DNA from: an uncultured virus (IMG/VR IMGVR_UViG_3300042507_002066)
Lineage: Duplodnaviria > Heunggongvirae > Uroviricota > Caudoviricetes
Reading direction: 5' to 3' (one strand)
IMG/VR virus record: IMGVR_UViG_3300042507_002066
DNA: 20,000 bases
A program made the position numbers and the translations under genes. Positions 7,652 to 12,880 of this stretch are shown in pieces. How positions within the stretch are numbered: the first letter of the stretch is position 1; each line of letters starts with the position of its first letter. The notes beneath the pieces were generated by a model. It made no database searches. It saw only the letters and a list, made by a program, of their open reading frames with translations, and was not told the DNA's origin.

Positions 7652-7726
7652 TGGCACCGGTGGTAGGAATCGAACCCACTGCGCGAGGTTTTGGAGACCT
7701 CCGCTCTACCATTGAGCTACACCGAT
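7652..7726 (-). tRNA. tRNA-Trp(CCA)
   Basis: GAGGT-CT-CCA-AA-ACCTC; G73 CCA. Confidence 0.93.
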
Positions 7727-7734
7727 ATAAATTT

Positions 7735-7810
7735 TGGCTCCCTGACCAGGGCTCGAACCTGGGACATTCTGATTAACAGTCAGACGCTCTACCAACTGAG
7801 CTATCAGGAA
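7735..7810 (-). tRNA. tRNA-Asn(GUU)
   Basis: TCTGA-CT-GTT-AA-TCAGA; G73 CCA. Confidence 0.93.
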
Positions 7811-7815
7811 ACTAT

Positions 7816-7905
7816 CTCTGTTTTCCGCTATACCCCAGCGCATTGCGTGTTTCAGTAAAGTTTGGGTGGCCGACCCTCATTTACGGGATATAGCGGGAAA
7901 CAGAG
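7816..7905 (-). ncRNA. long-stem RNA candidate
   Basis: 21-position stem CTCTGTTTCCCGCTATATCCC/GGGGTATAGCGGAAAACAGAG (one C-A mismatch) enclosing two small hairpins. Confidence 0.55.
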
Positions 7906-7920
7906 CACTCGTTACAATAC

Positions 7921-7928
7921 TATTTATA
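7921..7928 (-). promoter_or_regulatory. T4-type late promoter TATAAATA
   Basis: Exact consensus overlapping the stop of 7924..8322. Confidence 0.65.
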
Positions 7929-8322
7929 CAACTTCAGCACGAAAGAAGTTGATCGCGTTGTCAAACATTGCTGCCATGCGATAAGGCAGACCCTTAAGGA
8001 AGCAGATGTAGCTGCCACCGTACATCATGTCGATATCGCTAAGCTCCAAACCTTGGACGATCCAACGAACTGCGTCTTCACGCGAACGAGCACCAACATC
8101 AAGAGCGTTTGCAATCTCAAGCTCGAAAGCATTGATCGCAGCGATCTGTTCTTGAGCTTCCCGCTCACGCGCTTGCTCAAGTTCTACAAGCAGGTTATCC
8201 CACATGGCTTGACGAGTGTCGTCGCCGCACTGAGTCCACTCTTCCCAGAAGTATGCATCTGGGCGATAGCCGTAAGCATCCTTGTGGAGGTCGGAGACGA
8301 TCGTTTCATCGAAGGTATACAT
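7924..8322 (-). CDS. hypothetical early protein, 132 aa
   Basis: SDLHKDAYGYRP motif; GAGG SD; own promoter. Confidence 0.85.
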   Translation of the reverse strand: MYTFDETIVSDLHKDAYGYRPDAYFWEEWTQCGDDTRQAMWDNLLVELEQAREREAQEQIAAINAFELEIANALDVGARSREDAVRWIVQGLELSDIDMMYGGSYICFLKGLPYRMAAMFDNAINFFRAEVV

Positions 8323-8348
8323 GATCAGTTCCTCTTCTGTATATTCTC

Positions 8349-8377
8349 AATCTACACTGATTCGACAGAAATGTCAA
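8349..8377 (-). promoter_or_regulatory. phage early promoter
   Basis: TTGACA-TTTCTGTCGAATCAGTG-TAGATT (17-nt spacer). Confidence 0.75.
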
Positions 8378-8380
8378 CTA

Positions 8381-8581
8381 TTATTTGTTAGCGAGGTAGT
8401 AACGAACCAACATCATATCAGTTTCATCGAGCGGTTTACCTGCCCAGTTTGCACCTTGGACGGCGACCTTTTCCGAAACGCGAGCGAGGTTGTTTGCAAT
8501 CACGTCGTTCTTGTGAGTGCGAGCCATCTCGGACATACCGTAGGCAATCTCAGCAAGTTTGGAGCTAGCGATATTCATCAA
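8381..8581 (-). CDS. hypothetical early protein, about 66 aa
   Basis: ORF track; AAGGA SD; own promoter. Confidence 0.75.
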   Translation of the reverse strand: MMNIASSKLAEIAYGMSEMARTHKNDVIANNLARVSEKVAVQGANWAGKPLDETDMMLVRYYLANK

Positions 8582-8607
8582 GGTTTCCTTTCGTTCCTTA
8601 CATTATT

Positions 8608-8636
8608 AGAATACACTGATTCGACATGAATGTCAA
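8608..8636 (-). promoter_or_regulatory. phage early promoter
   Basis: TTGACA-TTCATGTCGAATCAGTG-TATTCT. Confidence 0.75.
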
Positions 8637-8639
8637 TAG

Positions 8640-8804
8640 TTATTTGTATGTACCATTTTTAATTTGGGCATACACATAACGTGCATCAGCATCGAAATCT
8701 TCCCTAGTGCATTCGCTCAGGTCAAGATCCATCCAAGCAAACACTTTAGTCGCGACTTCTTTATCAACTTGAAGAAGCTCCATGATATCACGAATGTAAA
8801 GCAT
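8640..8804 (-). CDS. hypothetical early protein, 54 aa (not in ORF track)
   Basis: MLYIRDIMELLQVDKEVATKVFAWMDLDLSECTREDFDADARYVYAQIKNGTYK; AAGGA SD; own promoter. Confidence 0.75.
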   Translation of the reverse strand: MLYIRDIMELLQVDKEVATKVFAWMDLDLSECTREDFDADARYVYAQIKNGTYK

Positions 8805-8835
8805 AACGTTGTTTCCTTTCGTTACTTACATTATC

Positions 8836-8864
8836 AATATAAACTGATTCTATGTGAATGTCAA
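8836..8864 (-). promoter_or_regulatory. phage early promoter
   Basis: TTGACA-TTCACATAGAATCAGTT-TATATT. Confidence 0.75.
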
Positions 8865-8876
8865 CCATTATTTTTT

Positions 8877-8965
8877 TGGCGGGTGGCACAGAAATCGAAT
8901 CTGACAGACTTGCGCCTGCGCATCGCTTTCCAGGCGAGCCCTAGTCCCAACTAGGATTACCACCC
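8877..8965 (-). tRNA. tRNA-Ser(GGA) with 8/4 fold
   Basis: 8-bp acceptor GGGTGGTA/TGCCACCC; 4-bp T-stem CAGA/TCTG; extended D-stem; long variable arm; G73 CCA. Confidence 0.85.
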
Positions 8966-8969
8966 GTAT

Positions 8970-9057
8970 TGGCGGACCGTCTGGGAGTCGAACCCAGTGA
9001 ACGATTGCTCGTTCTACAGATTAGCAATCTGCTGCATTACCGTCCTGCCCACGATCC
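8970..9057 (-). tRNA. tRNA-Ser(GCU)
   Basis: GCAGA-TT-GCT-AA-TCTGT; long variable arm; G73 CCA. Confidence 0.92.
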
Positions 9058-9058
9058 A

Positions 9059-9292
9059 TTAGTCTTCATCAGTTGCTTTATAAAAGTCTTCCATCTTCTT
9101 TTCTTGAAGAGTCTTTTGATCCCACCACTTGCGTGGATTACCACATAAGTAGCAGGAACACAGATGCGGTGTATGAGAATAGACTCCAACATCAGCATCG
9201 GTTAGATCACGAGCTCGATGTTTTGAGAAAAACTTTCGAACCCACTGCTTCTTCTTAAGTTCTTGAAATCGTCGAAAAGCTCTATCGCGCAT
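9059..9292 (-). CDS. small basic protein with CSCxxCGNPRK motif
   Basis: AGGAG SD; HLCSCYLCGNPRK suggests Zn binding. Confidence 0.8.
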   Translation of the reverse strand: MRDRAFRRFQELKKKQWVRKFFSKHRARDLTDADVGVYSHTPHLCSCYLCGNPRKWWDQKTLQEKKMEDFYKATDED

Positions 9293-9312
9293 TGTGCTCT
9301 CCTATACTATAT

Positions 9313-9508
9313 AACAGAATGTTTGGGGAAAGCTAAGATTGCTCTTAGCGGCACCTTGCCATACTCCCCATCAAAGATACACTGTTTGGATTCAAACCTT
9401 GTTCTAGTCTTGTCGATCTGCGCTTCTCACAGTGCTGACAGTGTATCCATGGTGGGGAGTACTGGAATCGAACCAGTAGTTTTGTTTTGTTGCTGTAAAC
9501 ATTCTAAA
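9313..9508 (-). ncRNA. circularly permuted tRNA-like RNA (repeat copy C)
   Basis: T-arm + ACTCCCC-A-CCA precedes GGGGAGT + D-like arm; enclosed by AGAATGTTT/AAACATTCT. Confidence 0.75.
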
Positions 9509-9511
9509 TTT

Positions 9512-9588
9512 TGGTGCCCATGGAGGGACTCGAACCCCCAACATACGCGTTCTAAGCGCGCCGACTCTACCAATTGGCCTACATGGGC
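9512..9588 (-). tRNA. tRNA-Leu(UAG), short variable loop
   Basis: GCCCATG/CATGGGC; GCGCG-CT-TAG-AA-CGCGT; A73 CCA. Confidence 0.88.
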
Positions 9589-9595
9589 ATGTAGT

Positions 9596-9670
9596 TGGTG
9601 CGGAATGAGAGGGTCGAACTCCCGACAACCTCGGTGTAAACGAGGGGCTCTACCACTGAGCTAATTCCGC
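9596..9670 (-). tRNA. tRNA-Val(UAC)
   Basis: CCTCG-TT-TAC-AC-CGAGG; CCA. Confidence 0.93.
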
Positions 9671-9679
9671 ATTATTGAA

Positions 9680-9767
9680 TACGATGGAATAGTGAGCGAC
9701 GGTAGCGACCCGTACCTCTTTCTAGTTTATGTGTTAAGACAACCAAGACTCTAACACAACCATCGTA
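9680..9767 (-). ncRNA. candidate inter-tRNA structured RNA
   Basis: TACGATGG/CCATCGTA closing stem; TGTGTTA/TAACACA; ACGG-GTCGCTA-CCGT T-loop-like hairpin. Confidence 0.55.
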
Positions 9768-9770
9768 AGT

Positions 9771-9844
9771 TGGCGACCTATGAGGGACTTGAACCCTCTT
9801 TATCCGGTGGACAGCCGAATGTAATACCCATATACGAATAGGCC
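9771..9844 (-). tRNA. tRNA-Asp(GUC)
   Basis: TTCGG-CT-GTC-CA-CCGGA; G73 CCA. Confidence 0.9.
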
Positions 9845-9851
9845 AATTCTA

Positions 9852-9935
9852 TTACCAGCGATTTGATCCTGGTCCATCTGAAATCCAGAGAATTGCAACT
9901 ATAACCACTGCCATAAAGATAAGAAATGCAGCCAT
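9852..9935 (-). CDS. 27-aa single-TM peptide (not in ORF track)
   Basis: GGAG SD; MAAFLIFMAVVIVAILWISDGPGSNRW. Confidence 0.6.
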   Translation of the reverse strand: MAAFLIFMAVVIVAILWISDGPGSNRW

Positions 9936-9954
9936 TAGATGTTCTCCGTTATAT

Positions 9955-10030
9955 TGGTGGACCCTAGGAGGATCGAACTCCTGACCTCCTGCTTGCAAGG
10001 CAGGCGCTCTCCCAGCTGAGCTAAGAGCCC
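9955..10030 (-). tRNA. tRNA-Ala(UGC)
   Basis: G3:U70; CCTGC-CT-TGC-AA-GCAGG; CCA. Confidence 0.95.
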
Positions 10031-10036
10031 AAATTA

Positions 10037-10106
10037 AACAGGATCGTTTTGTCCGCTAAGACTATCATAACATTTTAGCGTTTTGGTTTGCTGAACCGAT
10101 CCTAAA
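10037..10106 (-). repeat. inter-tRNA ncRNA repeat, copy B
   Basis: Near-identical to 7496..7565 apart from the hairpin loop. Confidence 0.8.
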
Positions 10107-10109
10107 TCA

Positions 10110-10197
10110 TGGCGGAAGCGGTGAGATTCGAACTCACGGAACGTTTCCGTTCGGCAGTTTTCAAGACTGCAGGCATAAACCTCTCGCCCACGCTTCC
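10110..10197 (-). tRNA. tRNA-Ser(UGA)
   Basis: GCAGT-CT-TGA-AA-ACTGC; long variable arm; G73 CCA. Confidence 0.93.
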
Positions 10198-10198
10198 T

Positions 10199-10864
10199 TT
10201 ATTTTTGCGCTTCTGTATTTCTATATACAAACAGACCTTTGTCTATCGTATAGTTATGTTGTCTGATACCACCAAAAGTCCACAGTTCTCTTTCTTGTTC
10301 GATACTCTGTAAGTTGTTTGGTGGTTCAATTCTAGCTGTTTTCTTAATCGAAGAAATGTTTGAATTCTCTCCGTTTGATGCTTTAATATTAAATTGAACG
10401 CTTTCGATTTGAAAAAGTTTATTGCGAATTACGTTCATCATACTATCAATATATGATATTCTCTTTGTGTCGTGAAACATCATCTCTCCGCCGTTCTTTA
10501 ACAGATACCATGTCTTACGCGCAAAGTCTTCTCTAAATGTTTTCTCACCATCAACAAATATGAGATCAAAGCTTTCTTCTCTAATTTCTTTATTCATGAA
10601 ATCTTTATACCGATAGAACTCATAATTATTAGACTTATGTTCAATAAGATCTAATCTATTCTGTAGTTCTTCAATCCATTGCTGTCGAGTCTCAACGCAA
10701 GTAACTGATGCGTTAGAATCAATACTCTGAAGAAATATCATTGTCGAGCCACCAGGGCCAAATTCTAATATCTTTAGAGCAGTCTTTGACTTCTGAGCTA
10801 GTACGTCTGCGTCTTCAAGACTAAGAGCGCCAACCCATTGCATATTTTGAATATGAGTTAACAT
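10199..10864 (-). CDS. class I SAM-dependent methyltransferase (Methyltransf_24-like)
   Basis: ILEFGPGGST, DLIFVDG, MFHD; start reassigned to MLTHIQ because the longer ORF overlaps two tRNAs. Confidence 0.8.
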   Translation of the reverse strand: MLTHIQNMQWVGALSLEDADVLAQKSKTALKILEFGPGGSTMIFLQSIDSNASVTCVETRQQWIEELQNRLDLIEHKSNNYEFYRYKDFMNKEIREESFDLIFVDGEKTFREDFARKTWYLLKNGGEMMFHDTKRISYIDSMMNVIRNKLFQIESVQFNIKASNGENSNISSIKKTARIEPPNNLQSIEQERELWTFGGIRQHNYTIDKGLFVYRNTEAQK

Positions 10865-10887
10865 AGGAAACCTTTCAATAGAAAGTA

Positions 10888-10963
<76 letters not shown>

Positions 10964-11049
10964 AATGTTTTTGGCTCTAGCACCTCCTCGTGCCGACTTA
11001 GCTGCCCTATCCCAGCAGTACCGATTATAATAAGACCAAGAAATAATTT

Positions 11050-11126
11050 TGGTAGGCCCGCACGGACTCGAACCGCGATCAGCAATCTTATGAGGATTGT
11101 GACTTAACCAATTAGTCGACAAGCCC
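11050..11126 (-). tRNA. tRNA-Ile2(CAU), probably lysidine-modified (elongator Met not excluded)
   Basis: GGGCTTG/CGGGCCT acceptor resembles Ile2; CAATC-CT-CAT-AA-GATTG. Confidence 0.8.
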
Positions 11127-11133
11127 ACTAAAA

Positions 11134-11697
11134 TTATTTCTTTCTATTTCTTGCGCTTTCAGTCATTTTCTTTTTTGTTTCTTCTGAAAATGTTTGTCTT
11201 GCCCGCGCTTCTTTTATCTTATTTTTTGTTTCTTCTGAAAGTTTTCTTCCACTCATTGTTTTTGATATTTTATCTTTTTGATTTGATGATATTGTTTGAC
11301 CTTTGTTCCAAGCAGCGTTATCTTTATAGTGTTCTTTAAGACCTTCACTTATTTTTTTACGATGATCTACAGAGCTACTTATTTCTTTCATGTAAGAGCC
11401 GTGCTTTTTCCCTTTGAAATGAGGTCCTCCTTCTCCGCCAATTCCGGCGTTGTAAGTATCTTTTCTGGATACAAACTCTTCTGTTATCAACTCTTTCTCT
11501 TTTGTATTCATTTCTTCTTCAGTATCGAAGACAAATAGTATCTCTTTAGTAAAGTTCTCTTTACCATATTTCTTCATGGCAGACCTTATGAACTTTCCAG
11601 AGCCATAATATCTATCATTGAGATTGGTAGTTTGATGCTTTCCTATGTATATTTTTCCGTTAAGCTCATTAGTTATTTGGTATATTGTGTAAAGCAT
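11134..11697 (-). mobile_element. free-standing GIY-YIG (Seg-like) homing endonuclease with NUMOD3-like repeats
   Basis: TIYQITNELNGKIYIGKH, YYGSG, YN motifs; SEETKNKI / SEETKKKM repeats; AAGGAG SD. Confidence 0.9.
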
Positions 11698-11714
11698 TAT
11701 AATCTCCTTTTGTC

Positions 11715-11722
11715 TATTTATA
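11715..11722 (-). promoter_or_regulatory. T4-type late promoter for the endonuclease
   Basis: TATAAATA just upstream of the SD. Confidence 0.75.
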
Positions 11723-11738
11723 CAAAAAGATATTTCAT

Positions 11739-11772
11739 AGCGGGCAACTCTAACCAATTGAGCTAATCCCCC
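11739..11772 (-). pseudogene. 5' half of a tRNA gene truncated in the anticodon loop
   Basis: GGGGGAT-TA-GCTC-AATTGGTTA-GAGT-T-GCCCG-CT, followed by the endonuclease promoter region. Confidence 0.75.
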
Positions 11773-11779
11773 GATTTGT

Positions 11780-11867
11780 TTTAGACTGGGCTGTTTGCAG
11801 CTTTGACCTGCCGGCGATGACGGATCAGGGACACCTTCACAAGAGGTGATTAATTCTACAGTCTAAA
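11780..11867 (-). ncRNA. candidate four-way-junction RNA
   Basis: TTTAGACTG/CAGTCTAAA closing stem with CACCT/AGGTG, CCTG/CAGG and GCTG/CAGC arms. Confidence 0.5.
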
Positions 11868-11869
11868 CT

Positions 11870-11947
11870 TGGTTGCGGTGGGTAGGAATCGAACCTACGT
11901 CTTCGGCTTATGAGACCGTGCTGGAACCACCTCCAGTCTACCCCGCA
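11870..11947 (-). tRNA. tRNA-Met(CAU), initiator-like, atypical
   Basis: TGCGGGG..CCACCGCA-A-CCA (bulged A); CT-CAT-AA; CTGGA/TCCAG D-stem. Confidence 0.8.
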
Positions 11948-11951
11948 AAAC

Positions 11952-12100
11952 TTCTGTTTTCAACTATGACTGTGAAAGCTTCGAACTTTCGAGCGCTCAG
12001 GGGCACGCTGGCCCTTTTGGCATTGTAAATCACGGTCAGCCAGACCACCTATGGATTCGAACCATAGTACTCCCATTTACAGTCATATGTGAAAACAGAA
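11952..12100 (-). ncRNA. long-stem RNA containing a T-arm
   Basis: TTCTGTTTTCA..TATGACTGT / ACAGTCATA..TGAAAACAGAA enclosing CTATGG-TTCGAAT-CCATAG. Confidence 0.6.
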
Positions 12101-12159
12101 TTTCTTCTGTTTCCTTTTCTAAATTGTCAAAGAGCTAGTTAGTTTCTTCTTATATTGTT

Positions 12160-12188
12160 AGTATAATCTGATTCTAACGTTTTGTCAA
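12160..12188 (-). promoter_or_regulatory. phage early promoter heading the tRNA array
   Basis: TTGACA-AAACGTTAGAATCAGAT-TATACT. Confidence 0.75.
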
Positions 12189-12193
12189 CCATT

Positions 12194-12224
12194 AAATGAA
12201 GAAACCCAGGATTTTCATCCTGGG
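12194..12224 (-). terminator. intrinsic terminator of a putative attenuator
   Basis: CCCAGGAT-GAAA-ATCCTGGG then TTTCTTCATTT. Confidence 0.75.
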
Positions 12225-12269
12225 CTACTTTGAGATAGATTTGATCTTGTATCTATGTCAAAGTAGCCC
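12222..12269 (-). promoter_or_regulatory. putative antiterminator hairpin
   Basis: GGGCTACTTTGA-C-ATAGAT / ATCTAT-C-TCAAAGTAGCCC; shares CCC with the terminator stem. Confidence 0.7.
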
Positions 12270-12338
12270 GTCTCCATCAGTCCATACGCCTGGGAGATTT
12301 ATCGCCTGTCTTGATATGCTCGAATGTGTAGAAAGCAT
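12258..12338 (-). CDS. 26-aa leader peptide MLSTHSSISRQAINLPGVWTDGDGLL
   Basis: Follows TATAAATA and a weak GAGAAG SD; stop lies inside the antiterminator 5' arm. Confidence 0.65.
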   Translation of the reverse strand: MLSTHSSISRQAINLPGVWTDGDGLL

Positions 12339-12365
12339 GTTTCTTCTCTGTTGGTTATACAATAG

Positions 12366-12373
12366 TATTTATA
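12366..12373 (-). promoter_or_regulatory. T4-type late promoter TATAAATA
   Basis: Exact consensus 27 nt upstream of the leader ATG. Confidence 0.7.
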
Positions 12374-12415
12374 TCATTTGTATGAGATGTCAATGGTCGC
12401 AGACATTTTTTACAA

Positions 12416-12880
12416 TTATTTTTTCATTTTACTCGAATCATACGTGATAGCATGAACTGGTGTTGTTTTTGATCCGTGATGGGTGTTCATTGTGAGTCGA
12501 GTGTTTCCAGCTAAAAGATGCGTATGGCCGGTATGAGTATCATGAAGAACTATCGGCTTAGTCATTGGCTTTCCACTCTTCATCTGTTTTGTGACACGTT
12601 CTCTTTTGTCTTGTCTAAACGTGTCACGCGTTGGTTTGTATCCAGCGTCTGTGTTAGAGATCTTTTTAGCAGACGAAGGAGTCACAACCATGTGTTTCCC
12701 ACTCTTCATTGCAGAGTGGTAGTTGTCTTTATCTTTCAAATGTTGCAACATTTTATGAACGTGGTCTGGATATTCGCCATGAGGAACTTCAGACTGGACG
12801 TGAACTTCGTCGTGTTCATCAGTATGATGCGGCTTCACCCACTTAGATTGTTCTAACAAAAAATTTTTAAAAGACTGCAT
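12416..12880 (-). CDS. His-rich protein with ParB/Srx-like motif and probable capsid-targeting N-terminus
   Basis: MQSFKNFLLE; KPIVL...HLLAGNTRL. Confidence 0.7.
   Translation of the reverse strand: MQSFKNFLLEQSKWVKPHHTDEHDEVHVQSEVPHGEYPDHVHKMLQHLKDKDNYHSAMKSGKHMVVTPSSAKKISNTDAGYKPTRDTFRQDKRERVTKQMKSGKPMTKPIVLHDTHTGHTHLLAGNTRLTMNTHHGSKTTPVHAITYDSSKMKK

Follow-up and report, generated by a model that had tools for sequence, protein, structure and literature searches.

A short open reading frame spelling out the codons of a phage tRNA array, and its candidate role as a leader-peptide attenuator

Leader-peptide attenuators control the amino-acid operons of enterobacteria, with multivalent examples in ilvGMEDA, ilvBN and thr, and with further leaders in trpL, hisL and pheL. 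T-box riboswitches bind uncharged transfer RNA (tRNA) directly and without translation, sensing one tRNA and regulating synthetase or amino-acid genes. Among phages, the tRNA region of T4 contains the stable RNAs known as species 1 and 2. Yang et al. reportedly found in 2021 that host tRNA decay drives the acquisition of tRNA genes by phages. To our knowledge, the regulation of phage tRNA arrays is essentially unaddressed, and a full-text literature search, with subscription journals outside its coverage, returned no paper joining leader peptides or attenuation with phage tRNA genes. What these arrays are for is itself actively debated; among the proposals are codon compensation, the replacement of host tRNAs that decay and an escape from defences that cleave tRNAs (PMC10264068, PMC11555353, PMC11464382). 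Here we describe a leader element (12194-12373, minus strand) located directly upstream of the main tRNA array in a 20,000-nucleotide (nt) stretch, hereafter the window, of the uncultured virus IMGVR_UViG_3300042507_002066. We propose, with a rough probability of 0.55, that this element is a ribosome-mediated (leader-peptide) transcription attenuator that senses the decoding of the array's own codons.

In its layout the leader resembles the enterobacterial attenuators: a promoter-proximal short open reading frame (ORF) holds codons cognate to the product of the operon, the stop codon lies at the edge of a helix that competes with an intrinsic terminator, and a slow ribosome would lead to read-through and a fast one to termination. 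An earlier note on this DNA had described the arrangement as a late promoter, a 26-codon ORF, an 18-bp hairpin containing the stop and an overlapping terminator. All of these are present on the minus strand, and the 26 codons listed there match the sequence exactly. The features are as follows.

12364..12393, minus strand: sigma70-like promoter TTGACA(12393)-18-AATACT, overlapping the late promoter (consensus scan, 10/12 matches)
12366..12373, minus strand: T4-type late promoter motif TATAAATA (motif count; invariant in the second lineage described below)
12258..12338, minus strand: leader ORF, with ATG at 12338, 25 more sense codons and TGA at 12260-12258; peptide MLSTHSSISRQAINLPGVWTDGDGLL (sequence check)
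12272..12296, minus strand: hairpin A, inside the ORF (CUCC..GGAG plus CAG/CUG; minimum free energy fold)
12222..12269, minus strand: hairpin B, the proposed antiterminator, of 12 bp, a C/C mismatch and 6 bp (fold, -25.6 kcal/mol alone)
12194..12226, minus strand: intrinsic terminator, with a 10-pair stem AGCCCAGGAU/AUCCUGGGUU (12226-12203), a GAAA loop and a U-rich tail
12160..12188, minus strand: early promoter module GGTTGACA..TTAGAATCAG..TATACT (TTGACA-17-TATACT; 11/12 matches)
2636..11946, minus strand: main tRNA array, 20 credible tRNA genes interspersed with ORFs (ARAGORN, Rfam and low-threshold ARAGORN)

The stop codon of the leader ORF is located inside the 5' arm of hairpin B. The first five nucleotides of the terminator are the last five of hairpin B (AGCCC, in its 3' arm), and the last three C of hairpin B form the first three C:G pairs of the terminator. 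The terminator, with an energy of -16.6 kcal/mol alone, continues from its stem into the tail UCUUCAUUU ending at 12194, the U-rich tail reading TCTTCATTT in the window, and the coding strand holds no other terminator-like site within 2400-12400. The leader RNA as a whole has a minimum free energy of -52.3 kcal/mol, compared with -33.4 +/- 3.7 for shuffled sequences (z -5.1), with none of 200 shuffles folding as well. Hairpin A is a possible pause or auxiliary hairpin. The TATAAATA motif behaves, on its distribution, as a real late promoter in this phage, because it occurs nine times on the coding strand of the surrounding 53-kb contig and not once on the other strand, where approximately three per strand are expected; the copies are mostly intergenic and a short distance upstream of ORFs, as is the case for T4-type late promoters. 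A further candidate helix between GAAGAAAC, before the ATG, and GUUUCUUC, in the U tract, was rejected as a regulatory element because any purine-rich Shine-Dalgarno (SD) region will pair with a U tract through base composition, and the second lineage retains only 6 nt of it. The terminator together with the end of hairpin B (12203-12236; AAAGTAGCCCAGG..CCTGGGTT) resembles a hairpin much repeated in metagenome contigs from peat, bog and soil (L247-L365), a resemblance that is probably a coincidence.

Under strict wobble rules (G34 reads C/U, U34 reads A/G and C34 reads G), the codons of the leader ORF cover 18 of the 19 sense tRNA species of the array, with only Leu-UAA missed. Coverage had been put at 19 of 21 tRNAs in the earlier note; its near-completeness stands, while the count becomes 18/20 (18/19 sense decoders), and the two uncovered tRNAs are those that had been named as exceptions, Leu-UAA and the amber (CUA) tRNA. 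Conversely, 24 of the 26 leader codons fall within the decoding set of the array, and the remaining two, TCT and ACT, belong to four-codon boxes whose U34 tRNA is in the array. The note had also proposed a permutation test of coverage against phage codon usage. This yielded no case of 18 in 1,000,000 draws (mean 9.6, standard deviation 1.7, maximum 17), and a uniform-codon null gave P(>=18) = 3e-6. When the bases of the ORF itself were shuffled as mononucleotides, keeping only stop-free outcomes, a coverage of 18 was reached in 6 of 500,211. Among the 33,471 stop-free stretches of 26 codons in the six frames of the 53-kb contig, the leader is the unique maximum; those scoring at least 16 all overlap the leader, and the best score elsewhere in the contig is 15. 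Omission of both CAU tRNAs leaves a coverage of 16/17 (P = 1.7e-5 to 3.9e-5), completeness alone, given only in-array codons, has P = 0.002, and a Fisher test over 32 wobble classes gives 6.6e-6. The null models together with the six-frame maximum thus demonstrate that the codon coverage is not chance, even allowing for the search over many windows.

The array behind these counts had been credited with 21 tRNAs; 20 are credible, an 87-nt 'Glu' call having been dropped. Below the leader, ARAGORN finds 18 genes on the minus strand, one of them doubtful, so that 17 were kept, and Rfam adds three tRNAs that ARAGORN missed (11874-11946, 5004-5073 and 2877-2947, for which low-threshold reads give CAU, Gly-UCC and His-GUG). 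Nineteen of the 20 decode sense codons and one has the anticodon CUA. In order from the leader, the first ten are CAU (fMet-like), CAU, Arg-UCU, Ser-UGA, Ala-UGC, Asp-GUC, Val-UAC, Leu-UAG, Ser-GCU and Asn-GUU, and the last ten are Trp-CCA, Pro-UGG, CUA, Gly-UCC, Thr-UGU, Leu-UAA, His-GUG, Gly-GCC, Leu-GAG and Gln-CUG. The CAU tRNA at 11874 resembles the T5 initiator tRNA in its acceptor stem and anticodon arm. The dropped call is the following feature.

12042..12128, minus strand: doubtful tRNA-like element of 87 nt, called 'Glu-UUC' by ARAGORN

This element was not counted as a tRNA because of its poor stems and the lack of an Rfam tRNA match at E<=1. It comprises a hairpin AACAGAAGAAATTCTGTT, a good T-arm and poor acceptor and anticodon stems, and it comes first in transcripts from the early promoter. 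In an RNA contig from a related strain, 84 other letters stand in place of 11953-12086.

The leader also occurs in a second version, which we refer to as lineage 2. Copies of the window type are identical in L001-5, L020-24, L102, L103, L107 and L109-111, and the near variant L106 contains two changes in the ORF, AAT>AAC and GAC>GGC, with coverage kept in both. Lineage 2 consists of L025-27 (= L100/101/105) and the variant L104/108, and its topoisomerase small subunit is 85% identical to that of the window. Between the two, the -35 (TTGAC), TATAAATA, ATGCTTTC and the motif AGAAACATGCTTTC are kept almost base for base, and hairpin B is nearly invariant, a single T>C change having cost it one pair. 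All leader-bearing contigs examined have the same terminator stem and loop, while the U-rich tail is variable, ranging from that of the window to TCATTATTT in L106 and to TCTTTATTTT and TCTTAGTTTTT in lineage 2. The early promoter of lineage 2 has a conserved -35 and spacer and a variable -10, and the position of hairpin A is occupied by a hairpin with a different stem, three pairs being changed on both sides (window vs L246). The central part of the ORF has been rewritten (net -2 nt in length); the resulting ORF of 27 codons enters hairpin B in another frame, and its stop codon, TAG, lies five bases further into the same arm.

Despite this rewriting, the lineage 2 ORF covers the same 18 species, which only 3 of 634,007 shuffles equal, and its completeness, given in-array codons only, has P = 1.6e-4. 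Even when the alignment of codon tokens was tuned for maximal matches, only 8 of the 18 species are supplied at aligned positions and 10 elsewhere; obtaining the ten non-aligned species from 17 random codons has P = 1.3e-5. Between the ATG and hairpin B only the ATG frame is open in both lineages, and the leader is conserved as an ORF (26 vs 27 codons), a point whose failure the earlier note had named as refuting its reading. A free peptide, an open frame and a kept codon set are what would be expected if selection acted on the codon set and not on the peptide or nucleotide sequence. A tRNA with the amber-reading anticodon CUA is present in both lineages (window 7412-7489, minus strand; L246 5017-5094), and the stop of the leader ORF is TAG in lineage 2 and TGA in the window. 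The 61 long ORFs of the contig end in TAA (35), TGA (19) and TAG (7); with TAG in only 7 of 61, wholesale recoding is not evident.

To relate the position of a ribosome to the fate of the terminator, equilibrium folding ensembles were calculated, with the ribosome represented by blocking the 15 nt that precede the A-site codon and 14 nt counted from the first base of that codon. In the free RNA, all three terminator C:G pairs beside the U tract are formed with a probability of 0.003, or 0.0008 if the folded RNA extends through the U tract, and the full-ensemble difference favours hairpin B by 3.4-4.0 kcal/mol. The outermost of these C:G pairs has a probability of 0.003-0.02 while the A site is at codons 5-18; the value rises at codon 20 and reaches ~1.0 from codon 22. 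For lineage 2, the same quantity is 0.08 in the free RNA and ~1.0 from codon 20, but 0.36 at codon 5. In these ensembles, timely arrival of the ribosome at the end of the ORF therefore permits termination, and a lag favours read-through. The claim that completed translation breaks the antiterminator and favours the terminator is thus borne out in silico (0.003 to ~1.0). This suggests that hairpin B and the terminator behave, in the model, as a ribosome-position switch, the direction of which would raise tRNA synthesis when decoding is slow.

The attenuator is the best-supported mechanism, a judgement made wholly from sequence analysis. Its direct basis is the anatomy of the leader, the codon statistics, the conservation of both the open frame and the codon set, and the in silico switch. 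We infer that the ORF is translated, that its translation is coupled to the polymerase and that a regulatory outcome follows. In the proposed mechanism, a transcript from the late promoter, and possibly from the overlapping sigma70-like one, would carry the 26-codon ORF, with approximately one codon per downstream tRNA species. A fast ribosome would reach the last codons or the stop in the 5' arm of hairpin B before the polymerase leaves the terminator; hairpin B would be melted, CCC freed, the full terminator formed and transcription stopped. If any cognate aminoacyl-tRNA were scarce, the ribosome would lag, and hairpin B would form first and hold the three C needed beside the U tract, such that the polymerase would read on into the array. 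The ORF would in effect be a transit-time sensor, in which the waiting times at the codons of many tRNA species are summed and fed back on their synthesis. In this way the phage probably tunes its own tRNA supply by the speed at which ribosomes read the leader ORF. The link to anticodon nucleases made in the earlier note, which saw the leader as a 'damage sensor', is pure conjecture, and is indistinguishable here from simple feedback on tRNA supply.

Several observations weigh against this proposal. The first group concerns access to the array. A strong early promoter lies 6 nt past the terminator tail (TTGACA(12188)-17-TATACT), as had been cautioned in the earlier note, and inside the array there are three further TATAAATA motifs (11722, 7928 and 6056) and four sigma70-like promoters (8864, 8636, 8377 and 3537). 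The sigma70-like site at 3537 sits just before the Leu-UAA gene, in agreement with the suggestion that the one sense species missed by the leader may have its own promoter. With early, late and sigma70-like promoters all downstream of it, the leader was not found to be the main route of transcription into the array. Much of the array is therefore transcribable without passing the leader, and the leader cannot be the sole switch.

The second group concerns the match of codons to tRNAs. In the collections searched, the leader was found in two lineages only. The CAU tRNA at 11050 could be elongator Met or Ile2, and neither CAU tRNA is a certain reader of AUA. The earlier note had stated that codons served only by the other tRNA array are avoided; this holds for the window ORF, which contains no Lys, Glu, Phe, Tyr, Cys, CGN, ATY or GTY codon, and fails in lineage 2, where TTC and GTC are present. 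In contig G001, of lineage 2, no Trp or Asn tRNA is seen over 12.7 kb downstream of the leader, although the leader itself contains TGG and AAT, and three lineage-2 contigs combine an identical leader with differing first tRNAs. In the comparison of related leaders that the note had proposed, the 18-species coverage is kept in lineage 2, and leader content does not track the gain and loss of tRNA genes among close contigs.

The third group concerns translation and folding. The SD hybrid energy of the leader, cautioned to be weak, is -2.9 kcal/mol compared with a median of -5.6 for the 61 long ORFs, and 34% of random positions match it in strength; that of lineage 2 is -4.9 kcal/mol. When only the two helices are considered, full hairpin B with a 5-bp terminator stump (-30.7 kcal/mol) and hairpin B minus 3 bp with an 8-bp terminator (-29.8 kcal/mol) lie only 0.9 kcal/mol apart, and the strands may exchange quickly over the three pairs. 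Some species occur only in late codons, namely Gly-UCC, Leu-UAG and, as a borderline case with codons 21 and 23, Asp-GUC in the window, and in lineage 2 Ile-AUA, Gly-UCC, Ala-UGC and Trp. These would not be sensed, because a ribosome stalled there would already melt hairpin B. The coverage of the sensing part is accordingly 15/19 for codons 1-20 of the window (P = 1.6e-4) and 14/19 for codons 1-19 of lineage 2 (P = 7.9e-4).

The same late codons and internal promoters are relevant to a different read-out, in which the ORF would be translated and its codon set selected, with the outcome lying in processing or stability of the leader transcript, in occlusion of the early promoter, or in release of the ~150-nt terminated RNA to act in trans as a small RNA. 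The codon statistics need translation, not attenuation; species covered only in the last codons fit better if completion of the whole ORF is what matters; the array has its own promoters; and the terminator tail runs up to the -35 of the next promoter. We nevertheless consider such a read-out unlikely, as both lineages, despite their differing frames, place the stop codon within the 5' arm of hairpin B, hairpin B shares exactly the critical C:G pairs of the terminator, as attenuation needs, and no alternative target or processing site was identified.

Slightly less probable again is that the region is non-coding, consisting either of the terminator of the upstream operon with a stabilising 3' hairpin or of a late small RNA of ~150 nt, in which case the codons of the ORF would be incidental. 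The promoter with a terminator ~165 nt further on is laid out like a small RNA gene, and it is the promoter and the 3' hairpins that are most conserved, not the peptide; the weak SD, the compensatory change in hairpin A (seen between two lineages only) and the stable RNAs of unknown function in the tRNA regions of T5 (by annotation) and T4 point the same way. Against this, chance does not explain a coverage with P ~1e-5 in each of two lineages, and the unique genome-wide maximum, the re-supply of 10 species at non-homologous positions and the sole open ATG frame in both lineages would all be left unexplained. Nor did Rfam provide a family for such an RNA: no known small-RNA family reaches its gathering threshold on the leader, no cis-regulatory family matches at E<=1, and the only match is Acido-Lenti-1, at 23.7 bits vs a gathering threshold of 37 (E = 0.11), on the opposite strand over the terminator palindrome. 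That the ORF encodes a functional micro-protein of 26 residues is very improbable: both lineages share an open frame with a conserved start (MLS.H.S), but the peptides are otherwise unalignable, their C-termini come from different frames of the hairpin, the flanking non-coding DNA is ~100% conserved, and the match to the tRNA set has no explanation in a protein function.

Searches for further leaders of the proposed attenuator type covered several collections. Near and distant blastn searches of the leader region against the phage collection gave no match. Synteny of the neighbouring protein at 19 loci returned five identical to the window and 14 with protein genes, not the leader, after the homologue, and an nhmmer leader profile run over the synteny and relative loci returned the two lineages and repeats of the early-promoter module only. 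The 14-mer around the start codon occurs in at least 120 stretches of the viral contigs. A hairpin-arm pattern matched 13 stretches, 12 of them already-known leader loci and one an unrelated GC-rich sequence (L233). In a scan of a single metagenome with at least 119 matching stretches, no new leader lineage was recognised among the matches listed, the unrelated hairpin AAAGTAGCCCAGG..CCTGGGTT being predominant; nhmmer on the matches listed finds a hairpin segment of 30-60 nt, plus one hit over 94 positions (L273, model positions 130-223, E 2e-4). The early-promoter module itself recurs in related viral contigs (51 stretches, 24 contexts), where a protein gene mostly follows it, and a scan of these 24 contexts found the leader only in the two known lineages. 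Its extended form, GGTTGACA-N5-TTAGAATCAG-N1-3-TAnnnT (window 12160-12190; L369-L419), is usually located 25-40 nt before a strong-SD gene. No second leader was found before the upstream tRNA array, which directly follows an ORF of 155 amino acids (aa), and a scan for checklist ORFs at the related loci L066 and L071 (14-16 tRNAs) gave nothing beyond chance for ~300 ORFs. Metatranscriptome contigs from two runs, with a small word share, cover 11138-11174, 11739-12120 and 12934-13228, beside the leader and not on it.

The window forms part of a 53-kb viral contig, and the same sequence is found inside a 217,966-bp record rated 100% complete. All genes of the window are on the minus strand. Two topoisomerase II subunits at 13954-17171 match the T4-type gp52/gp39 families, and the large subunit is <50% identical to its homologues in cultured phages, with KVP40-like Vibrio phages as best matches; because of these matches and this level of identity, the phage is a distant T4-like myovirus. 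Upstream of the leader, an ORF of 154 aa (12416-12880, minus strand) has no PHROG family; its relatives (45-69% identity) occur in 14 other viral contigs with differing neighbours, and lineage 2 has another gene at this position. A GIY-YIG-type homing endonuclease ORF (11134-11757, minus strand; phrog_314, E = 2e-44) with its own late-promoter motif lies between the first and second CAU tRNAs. An inverted repeat of ~17 bp (CTCTGTTTCCCGCTATA ... TATAGCGGAAAACAGAG) at 7843-7902 (minus strand) is located after the late-promoter motif at 7928 and before tRNA-Asn, and a near copy follows the second early-promoter module in L396.

If the leader is indeed an attenuator, the phage would take a direct measure of its decoding capacity and set tRNA synthesis accordingly, and leader-peptide attenuation would be extended from amino-acid to tRNA supply and from one to three to >15 specificities. 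The element, at ~180 nt and self-contained, could serve as a compact natural sensor of translation capacity. A more far-reaching version is tentative, and we hold it to be rather less probable than the attenuator itself: the leader would be a multiplexed transit-time sensor detecting the loss of any of ~15-18 tRNA species, through host shut-off, tRNA decay or anticodon nuclease, and answering by late read-through into a 10-kb replacement array, as one member of a broader, so far undescribed group of translation-gated tRNA operons in large phages.

A parallel that counts in favour of the attenuator is found in Caulobacter phage phiCbK (JX100813), where gp083, of 45 codons, and a terminator annotated in GenBank stand directly before the genes for Pro, Pro, Lys, Lys, Leu x3 and Ser x2. 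The codons of gp083 cover 9/9 of the species in this block and 21/44 of them are in-block codons, both values being reached by 29 of 180,619 shuffles. An unannotated ORF of 32 codons (L368 4542-4640), again followed by an annotated terminator, precedes Phe, Val, Ile, Ile, Val, Gln and Gln, with a coverage of 6/6 species and 10/31 in-block codons (134 of 205,117 shuffles reach both). The two leader and terminator units are located at 2741-2970 and 4542-4703 of L368. In the second of these, the block-3 leader, the ORF segment GGCGGGCC duplicates the 3' arm of the terminator, which reads as a textbook antiterminator design. As in the window, a short ORF written in the codons of the following tRNA block is succeeded by a rho-independent terminator directly upstream of that block. 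In phiCbK, however, the tRNA blocks are sorted by amino acid and the leaders are enriched in three to four amino acids, like classical attenuators, whereas the window leader approaches a pangram for a single mixed array of 20 tRNAs and has a separate hairpin. The window and phiCbK leaders have no sequence homology.

T-box riboswitches share with the proposed leader the sensing of a specific tRNA state and the control of terminator read-through; they differ in the direct binding of a single uncharged tRNA, and the Rfam T-box covariance model has no match in the window at E<=1. The annotation of T5 (NC_005859) lists stable small RNAs in its tRNA region, RNAI, RNAIII and others, which like the T4 species and the leader are short structured transcripts among phage tRNA genes. 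In contrast to the leader, these are processed stable RNAs with no reported codon match, and no similarity to them was found; the annotated small coding sequences of the T5 tRNA region, judged by eye without statistics, include no comparable checklist. In comparison with the enterobacterial attenuators, the phage leader controls tRNA genes, not biosynthetic enzymes, and in place of runs of codons for one to three amino acids its ORF has approximately one codon for each of 16-18 tRNA species. The overlap between antiterminator and terminator is only 3-5 nt, without the classical 1:2/2:3/3:4 register, and the array has further promoters downstream. Set beside these known systems, the leader would be a case of leader-peptide attenuation applied to tRNA genes and multiplexed over ~15-18 specificities, a placement that we consider somewhat better than an even bet.

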